Shown: positions 682 through 27,425, counted from the first letter of the stretch. The stretch: DNA of 55,438 nt from Deltaproteobacteria bacterium (GCA_029262475.1 JAJCZG010000022.1:1-55438); one strand, 5' to 3'. The notes: generated by a model from the letters alone, not told the origin. Made by a program: numbers and translations.

Positions 682-2073
682 CTAACCAAAGAGCGCCAAC
701 TGCGGCGCTCTTCTCTCAGACACACTAACGGGGTAACGCCCCGTAAAACAAGCATCACAAAAACTGGACCCGGCCCCACTAACAGCCCGGTACATTCCCT
801 CAAAGCTCAGATACCCGAGCGTATCGGACGTTATAAATTCATTTATTTCACTAACGCTCATCTTGGCGCCGATAAGCTCCTCGGCGTCAGGCGTATCGAT
901 GCCATAATAACACGGGCTAACAGTCGGCGGAGAGCTTATCCTCATATGAACCTCCTTTGCGCCGGCGTTTCTAAGCATCTTTATGATCTTGCGGCTGGTC
1001 GTACCCCTTACGATAGAGTCGTCAACGACGATTACCCTCTTTCCCTTTACAAGGTCGCGAATGGGGTTAAGCTTAACCTTTACTCCGAAATGCCTGATCG
1101 AATCCTTCGGCTCGATAAAAGTCCTGCCGACGTAGTGGTTCCTGACCATACCCATCTGAAAGGGAATACCGGAGGCTTCCGCGTATCCTACAGCTGCAGG
1201 CCCCCCGGAGTCCGGTACGGATATAACAATGTCGCCGTCCACGGGATGCTCCTTGGCAAGCTCTCTACCGAACCTGATCCGAGCTTCGTAGACATTGGTA
1301 CCAAAGATCGTGCTATCGGGGCGGGCAAAATATACAAATTCGAATATGCACGGCGTATACGGGGCCTCTTCGAAGGGCTTGTGGGAGGTAAGCCCCTTAT
1401 CATCTATAACCAGCACCTCTCCGGGTTCGATATCCCTGACGAATTCGGCCTCTATAAGATCGAATGCGCACGTCTCCGAGGCAATTACCCACGAGTCCTT
1501 AAGCCTACCCAGTTGAAGGGGCCTGAAGCCGTGCGGATCCCTTGCGGCTATAAGCTTGTTTTCCGAGAGGAGCACGAGAGAGTACGCCCCCTGTACCCTT
1601 TTCAGCGCGCCCGTCAAGCGGTCGAGGAGCTTACTTTCCTTGCTCGTCGCGATAAGGTGCACGATGACCTCGGTATCCATATTTGACTGGAATATGGAGC
1701 CGTAAGCCTCAAGTTCGTCCTTTAACCTTCCGGCGTTCACCAGGTTGCCGTTGTGGGCCACGGCAAGCTCGCCCATGGAATACTCCACGAGAAATGGCTG
1801 GGCGTTCTTTATATGTGAAGCCCCGGTCGTGGAGTACCTGACGTGTCCTATGGCCTTCTCGCCCGGAAGTTTAGCTAGAGACTCTTCGCTAAAGACATCG
1901 GCGACGAGCCCCATCCCCTTGTGGGAGCTTAAGCTTCTATTCGATGAGACTATTCCCGCGCTCTCCTGCCCCCTGTGCTGAAGGGAATAGAGCCCGAGAT
2001 AAGTAATATTAGCTGCCTCCGGGTGATTATAGACGCCAAATACTCCGCACTCGTCTTTAAATTTGTCAAACAC
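682..2073 (-). CDS. purF: Amidophosphoribosyltransferase
   Basis: ECGVFG propeptide/Ntn cysteine, [20 protein letters not shown] loop [10 protein letters not shown], Fe-S cysteines (CDACF). Start moved to GTG 2073 ([10 protein letters not shown]). Confidence 0.97.
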
Positions 2074-2155: not shown

Positions 2156-4375
2156 TTACACAAAAAGTCCCGGGAGCGCGCCCTCCCAGGCATCTCTGAT
2201 AACCGAAAGTTCCAAATCGATAAATCCGTCGATAAAAAGGCGTTCGCCGCCAACTCTTCCAAGCTCGCTTAGGGTTACACCCTTCTCCGACGCTATAGCA
2301 TTTAATTTTTCAAGGTCGCCGGGGGCGACACTTACTATGATCCTGGACTGACTCTCTCCAAATAGCAGGGCATCGGCCCTCTCGCCCCCGGAGTGGCATT
2401 TAACGCTTACGCCTACTTCTCTCTCCGGCGCCAGACACGATTCCGCAAGGGCCACTGCAAGGCCGCCTTCCGAGAGATCATGGGCAGATTTAATTATACC
2501 AGCTTTTATAGCGTTTAAACAAGCTTCATCTACACTTTTGGCCTTCTTGAGGTCTATCCCCGGCGGCATTCCCCTCTCCAGGCCGTGCTTTACCTTGAGG
2601 TACTCGCTTCCGCCGAGTTCCGCCCCCATATCGCCAAGGAGAAGGATTACATCTCCCTCATCCTTGAACCAGATGGTGGTGTGGAGAGAAAGGTCTTCTA
2701 TAAGACCGACCATGCCGATGGTAGGCGTCGGGAAGATCGACTCCCCTGATGTCTCGTTATAAAAACTTACATTACCGCTTACGACCGGTATGCCGAGAGT
2801 GCGGCAAGCATTGCTTATCCCTTTTACCGACTCGCTGAACTGCCACATTACGTCCGCTCGTTCCGGGTTGCCGAAATTAAGGCAGTCGGTTACGGCAAGA
2901 GGTGTAGCGCCACTTACGGCAAGATTCCTCGCGGCCTCGGCAACGGCAATCTCTCCGCCCGTAAACGGGTCCAGATAACAGTACCTGGAGTTACAGTCCG
3001 TCGTAAGGGCTATAGCCTTATTCGTGCCCTTCACCCTCACGACCGCAGCGTCGGAACCGGGCCTTACGACCGTATCGGTCCGTACCATATGGTCGTACTG
3101 GCGGTAAATCCAGCGGCGGCTCGCGAGATTCGGCGAGGAGATCATCTCAAGCATTAAGGAGTTAAAATCCGAAGGGATATCAATAGCATTTAAATCAAGG
3201 GTGTTACGTTCGTCCTGCTCTTCCGGCCTCTTTATAGGGCGGTTATAGACCGGGGCAGCGTCGGTTAGCGAGTCTATCGGCATCTCGCCTTCGAGCGCGT
3301 CTCCGTTCATTAGCCTTAGCGTAGAGCCGTCGGTTACGCTCCCGATTACCGTTGCCTCAAGGTCCCATTTATGGACTATCTCCATCACCTTATCTTCGGT
3401 CCCGGCACTGACGACCATCAGCATCCTCTCCTGAGATTCCGAGAGCATCATCTCGTAGGCCGTCATCCCCTCCTCGCGACACGGTACCTTGCTTATATCA
3501 ATTTCTAGGCCGAGCCCGGCGCGAGAGGCCATCTCTACGCTCGACGAGGTAAGCCCGGCTGCGCCCATATCCTGAATGCCGATGATATAGTCGGTCTTAA
3601 AGACCTCAAGGCAAGCTTCGAGGAGTAATTTCTCCATAAACGGGTCGCCGACCTGAACGGTAGGGCGTCTCTCCTCGCCGCCCTCTCCGAAGACATCCGA
3701 GGCCATTACGGCTCCGTGTATGCCGTCCCTGCCAGTTCTAGACCCGACGTAAATCACCGGATTCCCTACGCCGGAGGCATATCCCTTAAATATCTTATCT
3801 GACTTTGCGATACCTGCGGTCATCGCGTTTACGAGGCAGTTTCCGTTATATGATTCGTTAAAATATACCTCTCCGCCTACCGTAGGGACGCCCATGCAGT
3901 TACCGTAACCGGCGATACCGGCTACTACGCCATCGAGCAGGAAAGGGGTCTTTTGGTGGTCGGCAGAGCCGAAGCGCAGCGAGTTCAGGTTAGCTATTGG
4001 CCTTGCGCCCATCGTAAAGACGTCCCTCATTATGCCGCCAACACCTGTGGCAGCGCCCTGGTACGGTTCTATAAAGGACGGGTGGTTGTGGCTCTCCATC
4101 TTAAATACACACGCGAGGCCGTCTCCGATAGCCACTACCCCGGCATTCTCCCCCGGCCCCTCGATAACATTTCGCCCGGTCGTAGGGAAATTCTTAAGAT
4201 GTACCCGTGAGGATTTATAAGAGCAGTGCTCGCTCCACATCACGGAGTAGATACCAAGCTCCAGCATATTAGGTTCACGCCCGAGGATATCCAGAATCTT
4301 CTGGTATTCGTCACCCTTGAGGCCGTGCTCCTCGATGACCTGATCAGTTATCTTCAATGCAGAGGACTCCATCAT
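2156..4375 (-). CDS. purL: Phosphoribosylformylglycinamidine synthase subunit PurL (small type)
   Basis: [40 protein letters not shown] motifs; 739 aa, no glutaminase domain. Confidence 0.97.
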
Positions 4376-4731
4376 AAGAGAGAAATTAACACAGAATAAT
4401 GAATTTTAGATTAGAAAGAAATTAAGAGATAAAAATAACCCAAAAACCATAAAAATTCAAGGCATATATCGATACGGGAAGGAAGTTTAACTTCGCTCAC
4501 CGGAAAAAAAGGCATAACGGTCTAAAATATTGGTTGGACGGGGTTTTTCATCCCAAGCAAGAGAGTCTCTCCTTCCTTCAATAAGAGTGAATAGAAGCGG
4601 AATTCCCTAATGATTTCGTTCTAACGGCATTATAAACGGATAGCTTGGATGTATTTAAAGTATCCTGCAACTATACCGATATAAAGTATGTTGCAATATT
4701 TATTTTTTTCATCGTTACGAAAGGAATAACT

Positions 4732-5046
4732 ATGTCAAAAAAGAACTGCTGGGAAGTGAAGAACTGCGGCAGAGAGGCCGGGGGTGCAAAGACCGAAGAG
4801 CTAGGCGTATGCCCCGCAACTACTGACACCTCAATTGATGGGACAAATAGCGGCTATAACGGAGGTAGGGTCTGTTGGGCTGTTTCCGGGACTTTCTGCG
4901 AGGGCCAAGTTCAGGGCACCTATGCACAAAAGGAATCGAGCTGCCTCAATTGCGACTTCTATCGTAACGTTAAGAAAGAAGAAAGTTTTATTACCTTCAC
5001 CGCTCTTTTGCCGGGTCAGGAAGTCAAACGTAGCGGGAACGACTAA
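4732..5046 (+). CDS. Small Cys-rich two-CW-domain protein
   Basis: ATG 4732 with AAGGA RBS; NCWEVKNC...CPA...GRVCW...GTFC...CLNCDFY pattern. Confidence 0.7.
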   Translation: MSKKNCWEVKNCGREAGGAKTEELGVCPATTDTSIDGTNSGYNGGRVCWAVSGTFCEGQVQGTYAQKESSCLNCDFYRNVKKEESFITFTALLPGQEVKRSGND

Positions 5047-5086
5047 GCCCAAAACACTCCAAGCAATAGATATAATAAACAAACGC

Positions 5087-6490
5087 TTATGGCGTATTTC
5101 CAGGGTCTAGGCCACTGACGAGCAGCCCCATGCTATTGCTTAGTTCGAGTATGCCTAGCTGGTAGTCGTATCTGGCGTTCATGAGCCCGCTCTCGGCCTC
5201 GACGAGTGTCGAGTCGGCGTCTATAAGATCGGTGCTGTCGGCGAGCCCGTAGGTAAAACGCTTGAAGACCATCCGGTAATTCTCTCCTGCAAAGCTCAGC
5301 TGCTTCTCGAATGCCTCGGTTACAGCCCCCTGCGTTTCAACCTCGTTATACCGTCTCCGCACTTCGACCTCCAAATCCTTCTTATACCTGCTCCTCTCAA
5401 GGCTTGCGGCCCTTCTTCTGCTCTTGGCCTCATTTAAGCGCGCCTTCCTCACACCGCCGTCAAAGAGCGGGTACGAGACGACTATCGCCGCAGATGCGCT
5501 GTCTTTTAAGAAGAAGGTCGTCTCGGGGGATTGATCCCTATAGGTATACCCCCCCTCGACCGTTACAGTAGGCAGGTATCCTCCCCTGGCGTAGCCGACA
5601 TCCTCTTTCGATGCCTTCTCCGAAAAGAGCCTCGCCCTGTAGTCCGGGCGCTTACTGAAGGCGACCTTGACGATTTCACTTATATCTTCTAAGGGAGGCG
5701 TTATATCATCCGGGTCTTTTAACGTGAGTTCGCCCTCAAAGCCTGTAATACTCTTCAGGAGGTCTATGGCGTCGATCAAAACCTTCTCGGCCTTAATAAG
5801 CTCTGCCGCCCGCCCGGCCTTTTCGGCCTCGGCACGGAGCACCACGGCCCTCGTGGCGGTACCTGCCTTAAGGCGCGCACGACTCGCGCGGAGCTGCTCC
5901 GAGACCCTTTTAAGAGAGGCTTCCTTAATATTAACCTCACTAAATGCCTTTAGCGAGGCGAAATAGACCCTTGCCGTAGTTATAAGGAGTTCGTCTTCCG
6001 TGGCGAGGGCCAACGCCTCTGTCGCCTCGGCGCGCATCCTCGACCCCCTCAAATTACTTAAGTTTTTACCTCCAGCGTAAAGGGACTGAGTTAGTACCAG
6101 GTCAACGCGTTTCGTCCGGTCGGGCTGAAGTAAAAAGCTAGCCGATGATTGTTCTGTTGAAAACTTTCTAAGCTCGCCGCTCGCGGTTACGGAGGGAAGG
6201 AAGGCGGCATATGCCTCGCGAACCCCCTCCCTGCCCTGTAGTGAGAGTTCTCCGGCCACTCTGACGGATTCGTGGTTCTCCATCGCCATTACATATGCGT
6301 CTTTTAACGCCAGCTCCGAAGCCTGACCCTCGCCGCAAAGAAATAGGCTGAAAAACCCGGTAAATACGGCAATAGACAGGATAAAAGGGAAACCTGGCCC
6401 GCCAGGCCTCATGGCCCGTAAAGTGGCTTTAACCCTTTTTAAAGGGGAATATAATGGAGATTCAATTCTATTCATCATAATATATCTCAT
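5087..6490 (-). CDS. TolC-family outer membrane efflux protein (true start probably downstream of the ORF start)
   Basis: Hydrophobic leader, two OEP-like halves (A..LP.V motifs, YPLFDGG), C-terminal L.NARYDY..L..SMG. Confidence 0.85.
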   Translation of the reverse strand: MRYIMMNRIESPLYSPLKRVKATLRAMRPGGPGFPFILSIAVFTGFFSLFLCGEGQASELALKDAYVMAMENHESVRVAGELSLQGREGVREAYAAFLPSVTASGELRKFSTEQSSASFLLQPDRTKRVDLVLTQSLYAGGKNLSNLRGSRMRAEATEALALATEDELLITTARVYFASLKAFSEVNIKEASLKRVSEQLRASRARLKAGTATRAVVLRAEAEKAGRAAELIKAEKVLIDAIDLLKSITGFEGELTLKDPDDITPPLEDISEIVKVAFSKRPDYRARLFSEKASKEDVGYARGGYLPTVTVEGGYTYRDQSPETTFFLKDSASAAIVVSYPLFDGGVRKARLNEAKSRRRAASLERSRYKKDLEVEVRRRYNEVETQGAVTEAFEKQLSFAGENYRMVFKRFTYGLADSTDLIDADSTLVEAESGLMNARYDYQLGILELSNSMGLLVSGLDPGNTP

Positions 6491-6740
6491 ATTATCTTAA
6501 AGAAGCCTTTTTGGCGGCCCTTAACGGGTTAATAGTGACCCGCAATTATGAATTATAACCCAAAAAACTCTTAACGTGAAGCCAGTTTTATGATTTTATC
6601 GCTCAGGGGTCGATATTTGCAGTGCGCGAGCGGGCTTTTATCATTTTTATTATTATCCGCGAGAAGAGTTAAAGAGCGGGGCTAAACCGATGCTTAATCT
6701 AAGCCTCAATCTTTGGAGAGCCCCTAATGCCTGTATTTAC

Positions 6741-6770
6741 TTGACTTTTGGTATCAAAATAGGCTATAAG
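6741..6770 (+). promoter_or_regulatory. Putative sigma70 promoter of the carboxylase operon
   Basis: TTGACT-N18-TATAAG; the spacer contains an imperfect palindrome TTTTG-GTAT-CAAAA. Confidence 0.4.
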
Positions 6771-6826
6771 AATTCTTCTATTACAATTTCCTAATGTAAG
6801 CAATTAAAGACTAAGCAGGCGGTTAT

Positions 6827-8260
6827 ATGACTAAGCAAGGCTTATTCAAAAAAATACTTATAGCCAACAGGGGCGAGATAGCAACGCGTATCATAAGGGC
6901 ATGTAAGGAACTCGGCATCCCCACCGTGGCCATATATTCGGAGGACGATTCTACGGCCCTCTACGTTCAGAAGGCAGATGAGGCCTACCTCGTCGGCCCA
7001 GGCCCCATACAGGGATATATGAACATCCACCGGATAGTGGATCTCGCCATGAAGGTCGGCGTGGACGCCATACACCCCGGCTACGGCTTTCTCTCCGAGA
7101 AGGTACGCTTACCCCTCCTCTGCGAGAAGAAGGGCATAACCTTCATCGGCCCGACGGCGAGGAGCATAGCCGACATGGGTGATAAGATAAAGGCCCGCCA
7201 GCTTATGATAAAGGCCGGGGTGCCGGTAGTGCCCGGCACGGAAGAGCCGGTAAAGGACGCCGAAGAAGCAAAGAAATGGGCTAAGGAAATCGGGTACCCG
7301 ATAATGGTCAAGGCCGCAGGCGGCGGAGGCGGCAGAGGGCTTCGCAGGGTTGAGGACGAGAGCCAGCTTGCCGCTGCATTCGAGTCGGCGGTAAACGAGA
7401 CCAAGGCCGCCTTCGGCTCATCCGATATCTTTCTTGAAAAATACGTCGACGAGCCGCACCACATAGAGTTCCAGATACTCGCCGACAAGCACGGCAACAT
7501 TGTCCACATCGGAGACAGAGACTGCTCCATTCAGAGAAGGCACCAGAAGCTCGTCGAGATAGCGCCTTCCCTCATCTTAACTGACGACTTAAGGCGGCGA
7601 ATGGGCAAGGCTGCGGTGAAGGCCGCAAAGGCAGCTAATTACACCAACGCCGGGACAATTGAATTCCTCGTCGACAGGGACAGAAACTTCTACTTCCTCG
7701 AAATGAATACCAGGATACAGGTCGAGCACCCGGTAACAGAGCAGATTAGCGGTATTGATCTGGTAAAGAAGCAAATTGAGATTGCCGCCGGAGAGAAGCT
7801 CGGCTTCACGAATAAAGACATTAAGTTCAGGGGTTTCTCCATAGAGTGCCGTATCTGCGACGAGGATCCGAAGAATAATTTCATGCCGAACTCCGGACTC
7901 GTTACGGCCTACTACTCCCCCGGAGGCATCGGTGTCCGCATTGACGGCTCCATATACAAAGACTACGTAATTCCCGACTCCTACGACTCTCTTATCGTTA
8001 AGCTCATAGTGACGGGCAGCACATGGGAGGAGGCCGTAAGCCGCATGAGGCGGTCCCTTGAGGAGTACGTAATAAGGGGTGTCAAGACGACGATCCCCTA
8101 CCTTTTAAATATCATGAACGACGAAGACTTTAAGGCCGGAAATTTCGACACCGGATATATAGATAGAAAACCGGAGCTCATGCAGTATTATGAATACGGA
8201 GAGCCAACGGACCACGTAGCCGCCATAAGCGCCGCCATAGCGGCCCACTACGGCTTCTAA
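6827..8260 (+). CDS. pycA: Biotin carboxylase subunit of two-subunit pyruvate carboxylase
   Basis: IANRGEIA, HPGYGFLSE, GGGGRG, RDCSIQRRHQK, EMNTRIQVEH motifs; C-terminal AAISAAIAAHYGF tail; adjacent to a CT-BCCP subunit. Confidence 0.85.
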   Translation: MTKQGLFKKILIANRGEIATRIIRACKELGIPTVAIYSEDDSTALYVQKADEAYLVGPGPIQGYMNIHRIVDLAMKVGVDAIHPGYGFLSEKVRLPLLCEKKGITFIGPTARSIADMGDKIKARQLMIKAGVPVVPGTEEPVKDAEEAKKWAKEIGYPIMVKAAGGGGGRGLRRVEDESQLAAAFESAVNETKAAFGSSDIFLEKYVDEPHHIEFQILADKHGNIVHIGDRDCSIQRRHQKLVEIAPSLILTDDLRRRMGKAAVKAAKAANYTNAGTIEFLVDRDRNFYFLEMNTRIQVEHPVTEQISGIDLVKKQIEIAAGEKLGFTNKDIKFRGFSIECRICDEDPKNNFMPNSGLVTAYYSPGGIGVRIDGSIYKDYVIPDSYDSLIVKLIVTGSTWEEAVSRMRRSLEEYVIRGVKTTIPYLLNIMNDEDFKAGNFDTGYIDRKPELMQYYEYGEPTDHVAAISAAIAAHYGF

Positions 8261-14311: not shown

Positions 14312-14878
14312 TTAATTATTCTCTTCATCGCCGGTGACAGCGTTGTCGTCAGCATCGTCTTCGCCGTCTTTATCTTTATTCTTCCATTTCTTCTTGTTCT
14401 TTTTCTTGTGATCTTTCTTCTTCATATTGCGTCTTTCATCACGCATCGACTTTACGCCCTTGCTGAACTTCTGGAACTGCTCGGGGGTGAGTATCTCTTT
14501 GACGGCTAGCACGCTGTCTATCCTGTGGTCGATCATCTGCCCCTGGATATCCTTCAGGTCACCGGCGAGCGCGTTTATAGCTGACCTGTTCGTAGACTCC
14601 TTTTCGAGTTCGTCTGCGAGTTCCTTCTGCTTCTCGGCAAAGCCCTTAAAGAGCTTCTTACCGTTTACAATCTGTGCCTCTCTATTGGCCTCAAGTTTTT
14701 GCTGCTGGTCTTCGGTCAGGTCAAGCTCCTCCATCATGCGTTCCATATGCTGACCTCCTCCACCGCCAAAGCCCCTTACACCGGCCATGCCGCCACCCGG
14801 GCCCCTGGCAAAGGCCTGCGTCTCAAAGAGGAGCGCCGTAACCCCAAGCATTACAAATAAAACAAAAAATCTCTTCAT
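14312..14878 (-). CDS. Spy/CpxP/ZraP-like periplasmic helical protein
   Basis: Signal peptide ending AFA, Gly/Met-rich segment, two LTxxQ motifs (LTEDQQQ, LTPEQF), AGGAGG RBS. Confidence 0.85.
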   Translation of the reverse strand: MKRFFVLFVMLGVTALLFETQAFARGPGGGMAGVRGFGGGGGQHMERMMEELDLTEDQQQKLEANREAQIVNGKKLFKGFAEKQKELADELEKESTNRSAINALAGDLKDIQGQMIDHRIDSVLAVKEILTPEQFQKFSKGVKSMRDERRNMKKKDHKKKNKKKWKNKDKDGEDDADDNAVTGDEENN

Positions 14879-14897
14879 CGTCTTACCTCCTTTTAGT

Positions 14898-15431
14898 TTA
14901 CAAGAAATACTCTTCTATACTGGTTCCAAGCTTCACAAACTGAAGGCCGTTAGCAGTCTCGTCATCGCTACCAAGAGAGGAGAGAAACTCCACATCGTCA
15001 GCAAGGAATGCGTAACTCGCAGCCCCTCCATTCTCCATCGGTGAAAACACATAAACGCCTGTAAGTATCGCGGCTACGGCTACGGCCGCAAGCGCGGGGC
15101 GGGGGATAATAAAGCCGCTCAGTAGCCTTGAAAAGAAACCCGGCCTCTCTCTAACGCGGCTAACTTCGCTAACAGGCAGGGGGGATAAATCTTCCCTTAC
15201 GGCTCCGGACGAGAGAAGTTCGGCTTTAATGCCAAGCCACACGTCGTCGGGCGGCGAGATGTCGGAGAGCTCTCTAAAGGGTTCCAGGACGTGCTCCCTC
15301 ACCTCTTCACTAAAGGTAGCGCAAGCAGGGCAAGCCAGCAGGTGGGCATGAACTTCCCTTGAGGTCAAAGCCCCGGCCTCGCCGTCACTGAAGTCAGCGA
15401 CTATAAGCTCTCTTATCTCACAACATTCCAT
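14898..15431 (-). CDS. zf-HC2 transmembrane anti-sigma factor
   Basis: HLLACPAC zinc motif, single TM helix; ATG 15431 overlaps the sigma stop codon (TGATG). Confidence 0.85.
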   Translation of the reverse strand: MECCEIRELIVADFSDGEAGALTSREVHAHLLACPACATFSEEVREHVLEPFRELSDISPPDDVWLGIKAELLSSGAVREDLSPLPVSEVSRVRERPGFFSRLLSGFIIPRPALAAVAVAAILTGVYVFSPMENGGAASYAFLADDVEFLSSLGSDDETANGLQFVKLGTSIEEYFL

Positions 15432-15997
15432 CAGGCGCACCTCTCAACTCTACCGTGTTTCATAAGCGCCAGCCTCGCCCTTACGAGCCTCGTTCTGACG
15501 GTATTGATATTTATTCCCAGTGTATCGGATATCTCCCTGTAGCTTAAACCCTGAAGTTCCCTTAAGACGATACATTCCCGATGCTCCGGGCTTAGAAGAG
15601 CCAGCAAGGCTATGAGCTTTTCTTCATTCTCGATCTTTAGGACCTTCTTCTCGGCGCACTCTACGTCGGGGGAGTTCAGGTCGAGGAGAGCCTCGAAATC
15701 GTCGTTTACTCCCGGAGTACCCGGCTCGGTGGAGTGCTTCCTTAACCTTCCGAGCGCAGTATTTACAGCGACCCTGTAGAGCCACGACTTAAAGGACGAG
15801 CGATACTCAAAGTTACCGAGAGACTTAAATACCTTAATAAAGACCTCCTGAGTAACCTCAAGTGCCTCTTCCCTCTCCGAGGTAATGGCAAGGGTAAGCG
15901 AATATACAAACCCGGAATAAGCCCTGTATATCTCCTCAAAGGCACCCTCTTCGCCGGCTAACGCCAGCTCTATTATTTCTCTACTTATCTCTTTCAT
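15431..15997 (-). CDS. ECF sigma-70 factor (RpoE-like)
   Basis: Region 2 (QEVFIKVF...FKSWLYRVAVN) and region 4 (GLSYREIS...TVRTRLVRAR). Confidence 0.93.
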   Translation of the reverse strand: MKEISREIIELALAGEEGAFEEIYRAYSGFVYSLTLAITSEREEALEVTQEVFIKVFKSLGNFEYRSSFKSWLYRVAVNTALGRLRKHSTEPGTPGVNDDFEALLDLNSPDVECAEKKVLKIENEEKLIALLALLSPEHRECIVLRELQGLSYREISDTLGININTVRTRLVRARLALMKHGRVERCA

Positions 15998-22567: not shown

Positions 22568-22602
22568 AAAAAGTCCTGGCAGTTTTGCGTCATGCCAGGG
22601 AC
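22568..22602 (-). terminator. Intrinsic terminator
   Basis: Minus strand GTCC(C)TGGCA-loop-TGCCAGGAC followed by TTTTT. Confidence 0.6.
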
Positions 22603-22658
22603 GCTATACGGCAGCCGTCGCTACAGTGGGCTACGCGTGGTAGCATGAAACGTCTCAT
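22590..22658 (-). CDS. Putative 22-aa small or leader peptide MRRFMLPRVAHCSDGCRIASLA
   Basis: AAGGAG RBS 8 nt before the ATG, near-consensus promoter upstream, stop codon inside the terminator hairpin. Confidence 0.45.
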   Translation of the reverse strand: MRRFMLPRVAHCSDGCRIASLA

Positions 22659-22692
22659 CTCTAATCTCCTTGATATTGAGGCTACTCTATTA

Positions 22693-22721
22693 ATTATACT
22701 ACCGCATGGCGACTTATGCAA
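22693..22721 (-). promoter_or_regulatory. Sigma70 promoter
   Basis: TTGCAT-N17-TATAAT on the minus strand. Confidence 0.65.
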
Positions 22722-22815
22722 AAGGGTTTTTAATAATTAAAAATCTATTTTAAAGTCGTAAGAGCCACAGGGTATTTCACCCTGGTGTAAGCAGATGGAG
22801 CGGCACCTGGCGAGT

Positions 22816-23082
22816 CTACTTTACTTCGTCCTTCCAACGCCACCACTTAAGAAGCTCCGGGTCGTGGACTTCGTTAGCGGCGAAGTAGACGGCGCATCTG
22901 AAGACATAGAGGAGGCACCGGTCGGCGGTTACGCCGCGCCGGGCATTAAGCCTTTCGTATATCTCTTCACCTTGAGCGTCCCTTAAATCACTCACCTCAC
23001 TATAGCCGAGCTCCGTAAGGAGAGCCGCAATCTTAACGCCCACACCGGGGATTATGCGAAGTCCATTCCTTGCCGGATTCAT
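22816..23082 (-). CDS. Cdd1/McrB-like small helix-hairpin-helix protein
   Basis: IPGVG HhH motif, DRCLLYVFRCAVYFA...LLKWWRWKD; start moved to ATG 23082 (GGAAGG RBS). Confidence 0.8.
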   Translation of the reverse strand: MNPARNGLRIIPGVGVKIAALLTELGYSEVSDLRDAQGEEIYERLNARRGVTADRCLLYVFRCAVYFAANEVHDPELLKWWRWKDEVK

Positions 23083-23143
23083 CTTAAAATACCTTCCGGG
23101 TATTTCAAAAAATCCATAATGGTACGGCGGCGAAGCATCACAT

Positions 23144-24319
23144 TCAAAACTCCACCTCGGTACTATAAAGAATATAAGGAGACTCTTCACTCAACCGGAG
23201 CGCCTCTTTAAGTTCTTCCTTCTTGAAGTTCGGCCAGTCATTATCTGTGGCGGCGCGGTAGAAGCGGTTATAGAATTCGTCGGGGTAGACGGTAACATCT
23301 ATTAAGAGCTTCTTACCTTTTGTACCACCAGCCGGGAGAGAGTACTTAAAATCAAAGCTCTCGCGAGGAAGGATTCTCGTATCATACTCCTCCCTTGAAA
23401 GATCAAGCGGAAGTTTGCGAACTATCCTCTCCACCTTCTCGCTGTCCTTAATAACCCCTCCGTCCCTGCCGGTGAGGCGACCCCTTACGACGACCATTGG
23501 GGTGATATATGTCGGAAAGTAATGTCCGGCACCGGTATTAGTAATCCTTAAGGTGACGGAGCCTTCGCGCTTAACCAGCTTGAAGTCGACGGCGCTCTTT
23601 GTCGTCTCAGGGTCGTGAATCCCTTTGAAGAGGTGGCGGCGCTCCGGCATATGGCAGTCCTGACAGGTTACTCCACGCTCTCCGTAAGTGCTCTCCCGCC
23701 ACTCGGTGAATGTATTTACGAGCGGCTTACCATTTAGGACAAAACCGTTATCCAGTTGGTGACACGCGGCACAAAACGTAGAGCTGGTGAAGAGCGGATT
23801 CATGACCGTACTATGAAGCCCCTCCAGTGCACCTGCTGCCGGTTTTACCGGGCCGTTTATGGTGCCTGAGCGCATATGACATGCCACGCACGTTACGCCG
23901 GCCTTCTGGAGTTCTTCGTTAAAGAAGGGGTTCTTCTCGTAGCCGCCACCCGTATCCGTATTAGCCCGGATCTCGCTTTGAATAAGTGCCGGAGCGTGAC
24001 ATTTGTAACAGCTATAAGCGAACTCCGGGTCAGTTAGCGGATGGAGCTGGGTCGAGAGGCCGGGGCTAAAACTTTTAGCATGAAGAGAAGCGCTCCACTC
24101 CCTCACCTTACCCGGGTGACAGGCCGAACACTCTCCCGACGTAAGCCCCGCCACTGAGTGCCCTACCATAACCGGCCTTGACCAGTGGGGGGCGCTCTCC
24201 GTAGCCCCATGCGTACTCATTTTATCTATCTCAATAGGAGCAGCTTCAGCACCGGCCAGAGTAGCGGCAGAGATAAGTAGAGCTAGAGAAAAAGCTATAT
24301 CCGGAAGACAACGTATCAA
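23144..24319 (-). CDS. Exported pentaheme c-type cytochrome (c554/c552-4-like)
   Basis: Five CxxCH motifs (CSACH, CYKCH, CVACH, CAACH, CQDCH), W..S.HA and N.GAGH.FPT motifs; probable TTG start at 24319 followed by a signal peptide. Confidence 0.85.
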   Translation of the reverse strand: MIRCLPDIAFSLALLISAATLAGAEAAPIEIDKMSTHGATESAPHWSRPVMVGHSVAGLTSGECSACHPGKVREWSASLHAKSFSPGLSTQLHPLTDPEFAYSCYKCHAPALIQSEIRANTDTGGGYEKNPFFNEELQKAGVTCVACHMRSGTINGPVKPAAGALEGLHSTVMNPLFTSSTFCAACHQLDNGFVLNGKPLVNTFTEWRESTYGERGVTCQDCHMPERRHLFKGIHDPETTKSAVDFKLVKREGSVTLRITNTGAGHYFPTYITPMVVVRGRLTGRDGGVIKDSEKVERIVRKLPLDLSREEYDTRILPRESFDFKYSLPAGGTKGKKLLIDVTVYPDEFYNRFYRAATDNDWPNFKKEELKEALRLSEESPYILYSTEVEF

Positions 24320-24323
24320 AGCA

Positions 24324-25223
24324 TTACCTTGAGCACGGGTTCGCAGCACACGGGTTTTTAGGCCTGGAGTTCGCATTGACGTATGCAGCAAGTGCCGTCA
24401 TCTCACGGCTATTCCAGGAAAGATAATCTCCCTTCATCGGGTTCTTCATACAAAAATTTATCATCTGGTCGAGTGTTACAAAATCTTTGGTCATGGAGAC
24501 ATATTTAGGATAGGGTTCGGAGTAAAGCCCCTGTCCGGACGGATGACACGTGGCACATGATAAACCCGAGGTGCCAAGCGAAGTGTCCTTCCAGAGCCTC
24601 TTGCCCATTGCTGAAAGTTTTGATTCTTCTACAAAAGGCTTGCTTCTTATGAGAATATTTTTCGTAGCACACGGGTTAGCGGCACACGGGTTAGCGGCAC
24701 ACGGGTTCGCAGCACACGGGTTCGCAGCACACGGGTTCGCAGCGCACGGGTTAGCGGCGCACGGGTTAGCGGCACACGGGTTCGCAGCACACGGGTTAGC
24801 GGCACACGGGTTAGCGGCGCACGGGTTAGCGGCGCACGGGTTAGCAGCGCACGGGTTGGCGGCGCACGGGTTAGCGGCACACGGGTTAGCGGCACACGGG
24901 TTAGCGGCGCACGGGTTAGCGGCGCACGGGTTAGCGGCGCACGGGTTAGCAGCGCACGGGTTGGCGGCGCACGGGTTGGCGGCGCACGGGTTAGCGGCGC
25001 ACGGGTTAGCAGCGCACGGGTTGGCGGCGCACGGGTTAGCGGCACACGGGTTAGCGGCGCACGGGTTAGCGGCGCACGGGTTAGCAGCGCACGGGTTGGC
25101 GGCGCACGGGTTGGCGGCGGGTTCTCCGGCGGGACGTTTCCCGGCTGCCGCTACACTACTAACCCCGTAGCCTAAAGAGATGAAGATAGCTAGCATAATT
25201 ATCGGCACTAATCTTCTAAACAT
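24324..25223 (-). CDS. Exported monoheme c-type cytochrome with 30 AANPC repeats
   Basis: AAGGAGG RBS, signal peptide, (AANPC)30, CATCH heme motif, TLDQMINFC motif, C-terminal KNPCAANPCSR. Confidence 0.88.
   Translation of the reverse strand: MFRRLVPIIMLAIFISLGYGVSSVAAAGKRPAGEPAANPCAANPCAANPCAANPCAANPCAANPCAANPCAANPCAANPCAANPCAANPCAANPCAANPCAANPCAANPCAANPCAANPCAANPCAANPCAANPCAANPCAANPCAANPCAANPCAANPCAANPCAANPCAANPCAANPCAANPCATKNILIRSKPFVEESKLSAMGKRLWKDTSLGTSGLSCATCHPSGQGLYSEPYPKYVSMTKDFVTLDQMINFCMKNPMKGDYLSWNSREMTALAAYVNANSRPKNPCAANPCSR
24669..25118 (-). repeat. 15-bp coding minisatellite, 30 units
   Basis: Units GCy GCn AAC CCG TGy; variation only at wobble positions. Confidence 0.97.
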
Positions 25224-25300
25224 TTTTTCCTCCTTAAAAAATTAGGTTAATCGTCTTCTTGAAAAATATCGAAGTTGATGATTACTGAAAAAAACGCGCA

Positions 25301-25325
25301 TGTCGTTTCAAGCCTTGAAACGACA
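25301..25325. promoter_or_regulatory. Perfect 25-bp palindrome (operator or hairpin)
   Basis: TGTCGTTTCAAG-C-CTTGAAACGACA, ~80-100 bp upstream of the cytochrome start. Confidence 0.55.
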
Positions 25326-25409
25326 CTATCACATTTGTACTTCTACGGACTGTAAGATAGATTACACCGGGACCGAACAGATAAGATTCTAATCATTCAG
25401 CTCGGCATG

Positions 25410-25890
25410 TCACCCGGTAAAGAGATCATAGTTATCAAGAAATACTTTATGGACCGTTGGACAGAAATCCCCCCCCGGGATTCGTCTTTTCGTCACCTTC
25501 GGCCATAATCTCAAATGTACGGTCATATTCTATCGCCGGTTTATAGACCCGCGTTGAGACCAGTGCGTCGAATGTATCGACGACCGAGACTATGCGGGCC
25601 GAGATCTGGCAACGGATAGGCGCTGGTGATCGCCGATGATCTTAGCTCCGAAAATCGTATGTTTCTTCATTACCGCCGCTTCGGAGGAATTCACTAAAAC
25701 TCTCTCTCCCCTTCTCCTCACTTAAAAGGATCTCTCCGAAGAAATCAGCGACCTTCATACCCTTCAGGGTCTGGCCGAATAGCTCACAGGCCGCCGGATT
25801 GACATAAGTAAATACCGTCTCCTCCGGCCTCTCATCGAGAGTCGCCGCAAGCGCTCCGAATATGGCATTATCCGGATTGAAGCGGTACAT
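25410..25890 (-). pseudogene. Internally deleted PAS + HD-GYP phosphodiesterase remnant
   Basis: Three fragments with frame changes between them: PAS-like FTYVNPAACELFG; MKKHTIFGAKIIGDHQRLSVARS (from 25670); SARIVSVVDTFDALVSTRVYKPA...stop 25410. The HD and HHE/GYP segments are missing. Confidence 0.75.
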
Positions 25891-26363
25891 CAGAGCCCCC
25901 CGCTAGTAGTCTCTTCGATCCCTTCCTTCGCCCTTCTGATGATATCCCGTTCGTCATCAAAGCTCATAAGAGATAGAGCCTCGTCAATTGGAAACCACCT
26001 GCACTCAGAAACCTCATCGTCGTGATTTGAAGTATCCCCTTCCGTATACTCCATGAGAAAAAAATATACGATCTTAAAAACTTTTTTTGTTACGTGTTGG
26101 TCCTTATACGTATAAAAATATTCTATATCGCCGAGCTTCTTGATGATCCTTCCGTTTAGCCCGGTCTCTTCCCGTACTTCGCGGTGGGCAGTCGCGGCCA
26201 AATTCTCTCCCTCTTCCTGAAGCCCCTTCGGGAGGGCCCAGGGCTTACCCTTGCTGACAGATATGAGAGCAACTTCTATCTCCGCGCCTCTCCTTCTATA
26301 TACCACCCCTCCGGCAGATATAAGGCGGCCCGGCGGTACACCGGCGTCTTTCATATTTTCCAT
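25890..26363 (-). CDS. NUDIX hydrolase (Ap4A hydrolase-like)
   Basis: SAGGVV, WALPKG, Nudix box G.QEEGE...TAHREVREETG. Confidence 0.92.
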   Translation of the reverse strand: MENMKDAGVPPGRLISAGGVVYRRRGAEIEVALISVSKGKPWALPKGLQEEGENLAATAHREVREETGLNGRIIKKLGDIEYFYTYKDQHVTKKVFKIVYFFLMEYTEGDTSNHDDEVSECRWFPIDEALSLMSFDDERDIIRRAKEGIEETTSGGL

Positions 26364-26396: not shown

Positions 26397-27326
26397 TCAC
26401 TCCTCTATACCGGCTATCCGCTTTAGCCCCGCTTCTCTTGCAAAGGCTAACGCCTCCTCGAACTCCGCCCTGGTGATGGGCCTCGATAACTCAGGAAAGT
26501 CAGGGTTATCGCCGGCCTTATGGCAAGGCCTGTACTGGTCCATGAGATTTACATAAGTACTCGGTGAAAGCTCTTTGGCGATGAACTCCATGACCTCCCT
26601 TGTCCCTGCAATAGACCCGGGCAAGACGAGATGACGCACCATAAGACCCCTTCTAGCTATACCGGCGGGGGTTAGTACGAGTTCCCCCACCTGGCGATGC
26701 ATTTCCATTACGGCGAGCTTAGCAACCTCGAAGTATCCGGGAGCGAAAGAGAGAGCCATCGCAGGCCAGTCGTCGCCGTACTTTATATCAGGCAGGTAGA
26801 TATCAAATATGCCGTCGAGTAATTTTATCGTCTCCGGAGAGTCGTAGCCGCCGGAGTTATAGACTAGAGGGACTTCGAGCCCACCTTCAATCGCCTTCGG
26901 AAGACTTTTGACAATCTGGGCTATTTGGTGAGTCGGGGTAACAAAATTGATATTATGGCAGCCCTTCTCCTGGAGAAGAAGCATGATGGAGGCGAGTTCG
27001 TCTGTGGATATCTCCCTGCCTGAGCCAAGCTGGCTTACCTCATAGTTCTGGCAATATGCGCATGTAAGGTTACATGAGGAGAAAAATATAGTACCACTCC
27101 CGCGTGACCCGGTAAGCGGCGGCTCCTCACCGAAGTGTGGCGCATAGGAGTCTATGACCGGGAGCGCAGCAACGCGGCAGATACCCGTAACCCCTCTCGT
27201 CCTGTCGACCATGCACCCCCTCGGGCATAGCGTGCACTTCTTCATGAGAGCCGTAAGGGTATCTATCCTCGATAAAAGCTCACCGTTCTCATAGAGCCTG
27301 AGATATGAAGGCCTAAAGGTTGACAT
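26397..27326 (-). CDS. PflX-like radical SAM protein
   Basis: CTLCPRGC, HFGEEP, GSGTIFF, CNLTCAYCQN, GCHNINFVTP, YLPDIKY; start at MSTFRPSY. Confidence 0.9.
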   Translation of the reverse strand: MSTFRPSYLRLYENGELLSRIDTLTALMKKCTLCPRGCMVDRTRGVTGICRVAALPVIDSYAPHFGEEPPLTGSRGSGTIFFSSCNLTCAYCQNYEVSQLGSGREISTDELASIMLLLQEKGCHNINFVTPTHQIAQIVKSLPKAIEGGLEVPLVYNSGGYDSPETIKLLDGIFDIYLPDIKYGDDWPAMALSFAPGYFEVAKLAVMEMHRQVGELVLTPAGIARRGLMVRHLVLPGSIAGTREVMEFIAKELSPSTYVNLMDQYRPCHKAGDNPDFPELSRPITRAEFEEALAFAREAGLKRIAGIEE

Positions 27327-27425
27327 GCGTAAAGGATAACACAAGTGGGGGTAAAAACAGCAATCTAAAAGACGGGTATTTATGTCAGATAAGGATGCGG
27401 GAGACTGAAATCATGCGGTGCAGGG

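Follow-up and report, generated by a model that had tools for sequence, protein, structure and literature searches.

A small exported cytochrome carrying thirty consecutive copies of the pentapeptide AANPC, and encoded immediately upstream of a pentaheme cytochrome, raises the question of what so many regularly spaced cysteines do next to hemes. The two genes, designated here gene 1 and gene 2, lie on the minus strand of a 55,438-nt stretch of DNA from a Deltaproteobacteria bacterium (GCA_029262475.1, JAJCZG010000022.1:1-55438), which is called the window below. An earlier note, made from the sequence alone, had described them as a candidate novel periplasmic redox system. Our main finding is that the pair is a conserved, self-contained and horizontally scattered two-gene cassette. 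Homology links both proteins to S-S bond enzymes, gene 1 to SoxA/TsdA and gene 2 to MccSep, and we tentatively favor the view that the cassette is a periplasmic module, made of thiol carriers and hemes, for S-S or chalcogen chemistry.

Gene 1 had been described as a 299-aa protein with a signal peptide, 30 exact AANPC units, a single CxxCH motif and two further NPC motifs at its C-terminus, that is, 32 NPC and 35 Cys in total. Our script counts agree, and the signal peptide is probable (coordinates are collected in Table 1): the N-terminus, read by eye, has a basic start, a hydrophobic core and an AxA-like site, and homologs have similar N-termini. The next gene, with its five CxxCH motifs, had been placed about 4 bp past the stop, and it most likely does start there: an in-frame TTG (24319-24317), preceded by AAGG and followed by a signal-peptide-like N-terminus, lies 4 nt beyond the TAA of gene 1 (24326-24324). 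The alternative in-frame starts of gene 2, an ATG at 24376 and a TTG at 24391, overlap gene 1; with every candidate start, the two genes abut or overlap.

The same note had expected the pentaheme neighbor to be conserved and the NPC repeats to travel with the heme domain, and both expectations were borne out. Its interpretation is thereby supported in part; storage of sulfane sulfur, metal ions or redox equivalents on the thiol arm, and their exchange with the heme, are conjectural. A scan for gene 1, using one genome per species, yielded 117 confirmed relatives, and the best 80 loci were kept. According to the record titles, they belong to Deltaproteobacteria/Thermodesulfobacteriota, Nitrospirae, Nitrospinota, Candidatus Tectomicrobia and Zetaproteobacteria. 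Two cultured strains, Mariprofundus micogutta ET2 and Mariprofundus sp. EBB-1, carry the cassette. A gene-2 homolog was detected by tblastn in 66 of the 80 loci, and nearly all of these homologs share the strand of gene 1 and begin downstream of it, at a distance of a few hundred bases at most; gene 2 is inverted in one locus (L020) and lies further off in two others (L057 and L058). By clustering of open reading frames (ORFs), a gene-2 piece is present in 69 of the 80 loci (70 of 81 with the window), including three copies cut by a contig end and one remnant. Of the 11 loci that remain, four stop about 250 bases or less from gene 1, and the other seven lack gene 2 despite having room for it. 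Gene 1 is present in all 81 loci, while the next real gene cluster besides the pair is found in 12 only. The remnant (L013, 3025-3252) is a 75-aa ORF in which the N-terminal motif of gene 2 (YWKRP...) is fused to its C-terminal motif (PEEFYDRFY), as if an internal deletion had removed the rest of gene 2 beside an intact gene 1.

The association also holds when gene 2 is the starting point. Of 301 genomes sampled from the phylum, 15 contain a match to it at E<=1e-20, its own genome among them. Ten strong matches lie outside its own genome: seven have gene 1 directly upstream, one is at a contig end and two lack it. In other words, gene 1 is upstream of seven of the nine strong gene-2 homologs that have upstream DNA, and of none of the four weak matches. 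Strong matches to gene 1 occur in 22 of the 40 other genomes from the order to which the window belongs.

The cysteine-rich tails are likewise shared by the relatives of gene 1. When proteins of 164 to 524 aa were searched with the heme domain, 197 homologs were found, 120 of which were listed; all 120 listed have NPC motifs N- or C-terminal to that domain (1 to 24 copies) and at least three tail Cys. Tails are found on both sides of the domain, and most of these homologs have a C-terminal NPC tail. A second search, with no length limit and in a library clustered at 50% identity, returned 517 proteins at E<=1e-3 (133 at E<=1e-10); among the best 150 of the 517 representatives, 71 have at least two NPC and 45 at least five. 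Bare heme domains thus exist further out, and Cys-rich tails, as far as these sequences tell, define a subfamily around gene 1. In more distant relatives, the same heme domain bears other tails: HPC repeats (P0179), GPC/DPC repeats (P0180), KCGAC repeats (P0185) and ACNPCAAK units with two Cys each (P0150, 50 Cys in 365 aa), as well as a Met-rich, Cys-free tail with 10 Met in 47 tail residues (P0123). Across the 81 loci, the 32 NPC of the window are the highest count, the others having a median of 9 and a range of 0 to 24. At the DNA level, the 30 units of the window fall into five variants, which differ at three third-codon positions (two Ala codons and the Cys codon), and all differences are synonymous.

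A full-length AlphaFold2 model of gene 1 has a mean predicted local distance difference test score (pLDDT) of 45, with 35-49 over the array and poor values over the heme domain too; it is compatible with tails that have no fixed structure, and with nothing beyond that. A reading of the repeat as a heme-regulatory 'CP motif' was rejected, as the motif here is Pro-Cys and not Cys-Pro. The window's own genome holds a second, unpaired paralog of gene 1 (contig C13:25960-26304, minus strand; locus L081, ORF 1348..1953, minus strand), 201 aa long, with 4 N-terminal and 8 C-terminal NPC, mostly in MKNPC/AMNPC units. It is flanked by a 121-aa DsrE-like ORF (22.3 bits, cut-off 22.7) and by a Glu_synthase-domain protein, and no gene-2-like gene lies beside it.

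What kind of cytochrome carries these tails? Residues 207-287 of gene 1 match the SoxA/TsdA cytochrome c domain PF21342 (57.4 bits, cut-off 27), and the NCBIfam SoxA model TIGR04484 matches below its cut-off (51.6 bits vs 110). Compared with the PDB, a profile from alignment A1, made of 27 gene-1 family members, matches the N-terminal domain of Rhodovulum sulfidophilum SoxA (1h31, E 5.3e-13), Paracoccus SoxA (2c1d, E 1.8e-8) and TsdA (4wq7, E 1.5e-4). Judged by these matches, gene 1 is a cytochrome of the SoxA/TsdA superfamily, nearest to the N-terminal (heme-1) domain of SoxA. A di-heme cytochrome c peroxidase (CCP_MauG) was considered and rejected: PF03150 scores 20.3 bits vs 25.6, over residues 204-235 only, and there is a single heme motif.

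The residues of that motif are invariant, as C42/C45/H46 in alignment A1 and C223/C226/H227 in alignment A3 (28 sequences), and so is Cys258 (27/27 in A1 and 28/28 in A3). Cys258 aligns with the catalytic Cys of TsdA, and with the QMINAC Cys of SoxA 1h31 (residue 114, counted from the alignment), which we take to be the heme-1 ligand. The gene-1 heme is probably His/Cys-ligated through Cys258; the invariant Met244, Met254 and Met263 are alternative candidates for the distal ligand. A His/Cys-ligated heme is the hallmark of the few known heme enzymes that make or break S-S bonds, namely SoxAX, TsdA and MccSep. According to the TsdA study (Grabarczyk et al. 2015, PMC4423706), the SoxA/TsdA family couples thiosulfate to another thiolate in an oxidative reaction, or runs this reaction backwards, and in SoxAX it is a Cys of the carrier SoxYZ that receives the thiosulfonate.

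Gene 2 leads to another enzyme of this small group. Pfam gives generic multiheme matches only, and the NCBIfam model NF040886 (ExtKL) scores 71.4 bits, or 62.9 bits in the genome search, vs a cut-off of 250. A profile from alignment A2, made of 35 gene-2 family members, matches MccSep (9wt8/9wt9) over about 270 residues (E 1.8e-16 for 9wt9), as well as the penta-heme cytochrome c552 of Thermochromatium tepidum (5ze8, E 8e-15). In the AlphaFold2 model of gene 2 (pLDDT 77, predicted template modeling score, pTM, 0.76), the heme part is helical and beta strands extend across residues 244-345; the sole Foldseek match at E<=0.001 is 5ze8 (E 9e-13, template modeling score, TM, 0.56-0.57). The ESM Atlas returned unnamed clusters of multiheme cytochromes from several phyla, and no functional lead.

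MccSep, according to the preprint that describes it (bioRxiv 10.1101/2025.11.18.688581), is a homotetrameric periplasmic polysulfide and selenite reductase of Geobacter sulfurreducens, with five hemes and an immunoglobulin-like (Ig-like) stem. It cleaves S-S bonds by means of heme 2, ligated by His and C239, and of the selenocysteine (Sec) U325, a nucleophile placed on a loop of the stem; C239 and U325 are both essential for activity. Five heme motifs and a conserved Sec/Cys at the U325 site are given as the unique characteristics of the family. The electron donor, unidentified in that account, is proposed to dock at the solvent-exposed heme 1, and the authors state that sulfur-transfer components may be missing. 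The preprint counts 637 homologs; sequences of the gene-2 type may or may not be among them.

The residues that matter in MccSep are not found in gene 2. The MccSep loop that bears U325 has its counterpart in gene 2, in which G265, H266, P269, Y271, T273 and P274 are invariant (35/35 in A2). Two HMMER alignments differ here, placing Y271 opposite either G324 or U325 of MccSep, so that the Sec position corresponds to Tyr271 or to Ile272. C239 of MccSep (in NPTQCC) aligns with NGKLLE-type residues of the gene-2 family, with no Cys. Most gene-2 ORFs have the ten motif Cys only; the extra Cys seen sit in the N-terminal 45 residues examined, and no Cys outside the heme motifs is invariant among the 35 sequences of A2. 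The catalytic Cys/Sec is therefore either absent from gene 2 or supplied from elsewhere. As judged from these alignments, gene 2 is a relative of MccSep that fails the defining catalytic features of that family, having lost them or never had them. Four His outside the motifs are invariant in A2 (H80, H229, H235 and H266); they are enough for four bis-His hemes, which leaves the ligation of one heme open.

How could such a pair work? In the mechanism that we propose, the thiols of the tails would serve as covalent carrier arms, as in the SoxY arm, and would hold sulfane sulfur or a related chalcogen in the form of persulfide, polysulfide or S-Se adducts. Electrons for making or breaking those bonds would be supplied or removed by the gene-1 His/Cys heme, which would be wired to the five gene-2 hemes, in whichever direction the reaction runs. 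The thiol nucleophile and the Cys-ligated heme, which reside on one chain in MccSep, would here come from the partner protein, gene 1. We infer that both proteins are exported and that they interact physically; a complex prediction for mature gene 2 with the gene-1 heme domain scored 0.02 (mark 0.32), which has no bearing either way.

A carrier-arm mechanism is the simplest one that uses the cytochrome with flexible thiols, its pentaheme partner and the partner's missing Cys/Sec all at once. It is also favored by the gene content: SoxY has no match in the window's own genome (completeness given as 100), which has a single gene-2-like gene and no other MccSep-like gene. The tail-rich family, the synonymous-only variation of the units and the conservation of the pair all point in the same direction, as does the recurrence of thiol-disulfide proteins near the pair in some loci, in the form of an 813-aa DUF255-thioredoxin/DsbD_N protein in six loci and of a ResA-like protein in the Mariprofundus loci.

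A bolder version, which we regard as unlikely, makes the cassette a split carrier-arm multiheme S-S (chalcogen) oxidoreductase, in which a Cys of the NPC tails would enter the substrate channel of gene 2 and act in trans as nucleophile or heme ligand. If this were true, the substrate would be a protein-borne array of poly-persulfides (or Se/As adducts), with tens of sulfur/electron equivalents per molecule; it would amount to a periplasmic 'sulfur/redox capacitor' of an undescribed kind in iron-oxidizing Zetaproteobacteria, Nitrospinota, Nitrospirota and Thermodesulfobacteriota.

Several observations weigh against the carrier-arm proposal, starting with the gene-1 heme pocket. The residues that bind substrate around Cys123 of TsdA are Arg109, Arg119 and Ser127, according to the TsdA study (PMC4423706). 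They align with the invariant Met244, Met254 and Pro262 of gene 1; with the residues that hold thiosulfate replaced in this way, the pocket does not qualify as a thiosulfate site. The closest solved relative is moreover the heme-1 domain of SoxA and not its catalytic C-terminal domain, and we know of no role for the heme-1 domain. The tails themselves raise further objections. No fixed number of repeats is needed, the copy number ranging from 0 to 32 across loci; the closest listed homolog (86% domain identity) has 2+5 = 7 NPC, and the next one (82%) has 21+3 NPC in ATNPC units. With 7, 24 and 32 NPC at 82-86% domain identity, the copy number changes quickly. Among the best 150 representatives of the second search, 74 have no NPC at all, a figure that includes a spurious match (P0138, 924 aa, with eukaryote-like Cys repeats and no CxxCH). 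Some relatives carry HPC repeats or Met-rich tails, and a persulfide cannot be carried by methionine.

The surroundings of the pair do not speak for sulfur either. The 132 immediate flanking genes are heterogeneous, no Pfam family occurring in more than seven of them, and no recognized sulfur-metabolism family is found among their 25 commonest Pfam families. Many hosts are Zetaproteobacteria or Nitrospinota, groups known as iron and nitrite oxidizers and not as sulfur metabolizers. Finally, our literature searches (supplements not covered) turned up nothing on this family.

The main rival view, conceivable if doubtful, is that the cassette handles soft metals or metalloids. The Cys tails would then act in the periplasm as a phytochelatin encoded by a gene, chelating a thiophilic species such as As(III), the products of selenite or tellurite, Cu(I) or Hg(II), and the low-potential hemes of genes 1 and 2 would reduce or oxidize the bound species, or re-reduce the thiols. 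The variety of soft-ligand tails among relatives (HPC, GPC/DPC, KCGAC and Met-rich) agrees with this, and so do the two invariant Met beside the distal Cys, where TsdA has Arg. The Met-rich rule, however, is met by three of 137 classified representatives, with one clear case. MccSep, too, reduces selenite, as reported in its preprint (bioRxiv 10.1101/2025.11.18.688581).

Gene neighborhoods provide the other argument for metalloids. A methyltransferase cluster lies within the fetched flanks of 12 of the 80 loci, and several of its members resemble arsenite methyltransferases; with NF008823 (arsenite methyltransferase, cut-off 263), four members score 355 (L071), 247 (L009), 196 (L048) and 71 bits (L051). 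In six Mariprofundus loci (L057, L059, L068, L069, L071 and L080), genes for ArsS, sometimes a ResA-like protein, and ArsM precede gene 1 and gene 2 on one strand, followed by rsmB; the ArsS radical S-adenosylmethionine (SAM) protein reaches 467 bits vs 300 with TIGR04167, and in M. micogutta ET2 (L071) the unit spans 3429-7650. Two genomes from the window's order have an ArsM-like gene 1.6-2.6 kb downstream of gene 1. Against this, the six Mariprofundus loci are kin and represent about one event, and methyltransferase families match at most seven of the 132 immediate neighbors, four of these being the rRNA methyltransferase RsmB. ArsM-like genes are also common in the order, with about 30 of 41 genomes at 215 bits or more. 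The pair of the window has no ars gene beside it; its genome has no ArsS, and the best ArsM-like match there is below the cut-off and on another contig. The link to arsenic/selenium genes is real, yet it is a minority pattern and partly a matter of kinship. The heterogeneity of the immediate neighbors counts against a metal role, and a metal sponge would need no heme, still less six.

Two side observations concern these methyltransferases. In a 'Deltaproteobacteria' metagenome-assembled genome (L009, 5836-11570), genes for a PHO4-family phosphate transporter, an ArsM-like methyltransferase and a class-I pyridine nucleotide-disulfide oxidoreductase come after the pair, the transporter gene standing between gene 1 and the ArsM-like gene. 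Two ArsM-like frames in genomes of the same family (G001:C4:10537-11349 and G002:C26:19060-19719) contain one in-frame TGA each, and are possible selenoprotein forms.

We consider it rather unlikely that the pair is a plain electron-transfer system, in which gene 1 would be a low-potential partner, the hemes of gene 2 would do the work on some other substrate, and the repeats would be an expandable low-complexity spacer or a disulfide redox buffer. The resemblance of gene 1 to the SoxA heme-1 domain, and not to the catalytic one, together with the absence of thiosulfate-binding residues, would suit such a role. So would the repeat number of 0-32, shifting between close relatives, and the predicted lack of structure in the tails. 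MccSep offers a place for such a partner, since its donor is unidentified and proposed to dock at heme 1 in the preprint, and the four invariant His of gene 2 leave one heme as a possible open catalytic site. A neutral spacer, however, would not remain Cys-rich in 120 of the 120 near homologs listed, nor would it recur on both sides of the domain or as independent NPC, HPC, GPC and KCGAC repeats. The synonymous-only differences between units speak against neutrality as well, and so does the invariance of the Cys that aligns with a heme ligand.

Could the array be an artifact? That its 30-unit length was produced by assembly, the real gene having fewer or more units, seems improbable to us. Logan contigs from four public sequencing runs were compared with the window; the two best DNA runs belong to one study. 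Contigs of these two runs are 99+% identical to the flanks of the array, and all of them stop at 24696 and resume at 25054-25112; no contig of the four runs bridges it, and the largest counts in relatives are 24-26 NPC. On the other hand, every 85-mer across 24601-25200 is unique, so that the array should be resolvable for an assembler working with long k; for unitigs at k=31, breaks there are inevitable. Tandem Repeats Finder reports a single array (24670-25119, period 15, 30.0 copies, 93% matches, score 704), and the order of its five synonymous variants is aperiodic (CCDABACDACCDAABBACDABBEAAEEEBB), unlike a collapsed loop. Arrays of 21-26 units are present in independent records of relatives. 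The array is real; its exact count of 30 is provisional. A marine-metagenome run (X4) contains contigs that are 90-95% alike to 24187-24998 of the window, with joints at which segments of the array are skipped or rearranged, one of them running from 24641 to 24978 with 24 other letters between; these joints fit a relative with a different repeat layout.

Lastly, that gene 1 is a precursor of a ribosomally synthesized and post-translationally modified peptide (RiPP) of the CefA type, or that its repeat is heavily modified by a dedicated maturase, is highly improbable: NF038108 ('Cys-every-fifth RiPP peptide CefA') does score 42.4 bits (cut-off 30) on residues 36-85, and a radical SAM gene does lie 1.2 kb upstream on the same strand, but the match covers a low-complexity periodic stretch, with a model of 65 positions set against a 299-aa exported heme protein, and no maturase-like gene is conserved beside the pair. 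CefA and gene 1 share Cys at a five-residue period. In a whole-genome search, NF038108 gave no match, not even at gene 1. No description of the CefA family was found in the literature searched; a short precursor with an adjoining maturase is the general expectation for RiPPs. The radical SAM gene (26397-27344) was rejected as a maturase of the repeat, as it has no SPASM or RiPP-maturase match and is not conserved, its cluster occurring in one other of the 80 loci.

Table 1. Features of the two-gene cassette and its upstream region, in window coordinates
Feature	Position	Strand	Remarks
Gene 1: exported monoheme c-type cytochrome with NPC-repeat tails	24324..25223	-	ORF, 299 aa, stop codon included
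Shine-Dalgarno-like AAGGAGG	25229..25235	-	5 nt 5' of the gene-1 ATG; direct reading of the sequence
Probable Sec-type signal peptide of gene 1, about residues 1-27	25143..25223	-	Ends VAAA/GK (slash, cleavage point); from sequence features
Array of 30 exact AANPC units, residues 36-185	24669..25118	-	Script count; predicted disordered
Gene-1 heme domain, SoxA/TsdA-type, about residues 190-287	24363..24656	-	Pfam and profile vs PDB
Gene-1 heme-binding motif CATCH, residues 223-227	24543..24557	-	Sole CxxCH of gene 1; Cys/Cys/His invariant in family alignments
Cys258 in QMINFCM, predicted distal heme ligand	24450..24452	-	Family alignment; ligation inferred
Gene-1 C-terminal tail, residues 290-297	24333..24356	-	NPC at 290-292 and 295-297; script count
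Gene 2: exported pentaheme c-type cytochrome with C-terminal Ig-like domain	23144..24319	-	391 aa from TTG 24319; longest ORF 23144..24391
Gene-2 CxxCH motif 1, C64-H68	24116..24130	-	Invariant in alignment A2
Gene-2 CxxCH motif 2, C104-H108	23996..24010	-	Alignment A2; the equivalent MccSep heme 2 is the His/Cys active-site heme according to the preprint
Gene-2 CxxCH motif 3, C144-H148	23876..23890	-	Alignment A2
Gene-2 CxxCH motif 4, C183-H187	23759..23773	-	Alignment A2
Gene-2 CxxCH motif 5, C219-H223	23651..23665	-	Alignment A2
Ig-like-domain loop GHYFPTYITP, residues 265-274	23498..23527	-	Aligns with MccSep loop GHSIPDGUPTP bearing U325
Terminator-like hairpin and T-run	25300..25326	-	12 pairs, between the decayed upstream gene and gene 1; consensus match only

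The genes that flank the pair in the window are a Cdd1/TfoX_C-like gene, two genes for proteins with no family match, and genes for a NUDIX hydrolase, a radical SAM protein and a type II/IV secretion ATPase. The immediate upstream neighbor of gene 1 is a remnant of a PAS/HD-GYP-type gene (25400-25890, minus strand). Residues 135-166 of a 293-aa HD_5 homolog align at 25504-25599 with 41% identity, and the region also contains an 82-aa ORF (25642..25890) and, near 25470, a G run. Either the gene has decayed or the assembly is frameshifted here. The terminator-like hairpin listed in Table 1 probably ends the transcript of this upstream gene. The radical SAM protein (minus strand, 315 aa) has weak NrdG/AmmeMemoRadiSam-like matches only, and its gene and that of the NUDIX hydrolase (25890-26363) are found together in a single further locus among the 80. 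At 14312-15997 on the minus strand, some 8 kb away from the cassette, a three-gene unit encodes an extracytoplasmic function (ECF) sigma factor, a zf-HC2 anti-sigma factor and a periplasmic Metal_resist/LTXXQ (CpxP/Spy-like) protein.

Regulatory scans gave few leads. Promoter and terminator counts were not above those of shuffled sequences, and no terminator was detected between or after the two genes. The 176-nt leader of gene 1 folds no better than shuffles (z -1.0) and gave no riboswitch lead, and a scan of 22600-26000 with Rfam at E<=1 gave just two chance-level matches, to a microRNA model and a small nucleolar RNA model. In other loci, the recurrent neighbors of the pair are a Crp/Fnr regulator directly upstream in ten loci, FGE-sulfatase-like proteins in five, DJ-1 in five, and ECF sigma factors. 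The window's own genome has cytochrome c assembly genes; a sulfate-reduction context was considered and dropped, as dsrA has no match above the cut-off there.

The earlier note's word 'novel' stands in part. The combination is undescribed in the literature that we searched, yet each protein has its place in a known superfamily, and the cassette itself is widespread; what would be new is the joining of Cys-repeat tails on a SoxA-type cytochrome with an MccSep-like pentaheme partner devoid of the catalytic Cys/Sec. Should the tails be carrier arms, they would represent a new solution to the trafficking of sulfur (or Se, As), the question being how sulfur intermediates get to periplasmic enzymes with His/Cys hemes, and would give a function to a two-gene unit present in several phyla of environmentally important lithotrophs; the cultured Mariprofundus hosts make the cassette directly testable. 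Even on the dullest reading, the repeat falsely triggers a RiPP model, and the family is mis-named, its members being called 'hypothetical protein', 'cytochrome c' or 'cytochrome c peroxidase' in the source records.

The known systems to which the cassette can be compared each account for a part of it. SoxA and TsdA share with gene 1 a CxxCH followed by a conserved Cys about 31 residues past the His, in the common motif QMINxC, and their published chemistry links a sulfur compound with a thiolate; in SoxAX, this thiolate belongs to the Cys of a carrier protein. Gene 1 differs in being monoheme, with neither a second heme domain nor a SoxX partner, in having Cys-repeat tails, which are not visible in the alignments of the solved proteins, and in having a pentaheme cytochrome as partner. 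With SoxYZ, the likeness to the gene-1 tails is a functional analogy only: a flexible arm with Cys among small residues that carries sulfur intermediates. The two have no sequence relation, and SoxY has one carrier Cys whereas gene 1 has up to 32, in repeats fused to a cytochrome. The penta-heme cytochrome of T. tepidum (5ze8) resembles gene 2 in its five hemes and in a C-terminal domain with an H..PTG loop, at 19% sequence identity. MccSep has the five CxxCH in the same order, a beta-sandwich stem, the conserved GH..P..P loop and a periplasmic location, which is predicted for gene 2. Gene 2 differs from it in having no Cys to ligate heme 2 and no Sec/Cys at the U325 site, and in staying below the NF040886 cut-off; it is also nearly always paired with gene 1, whereas the available portion of the preprint mentions no such partner for MccSep.

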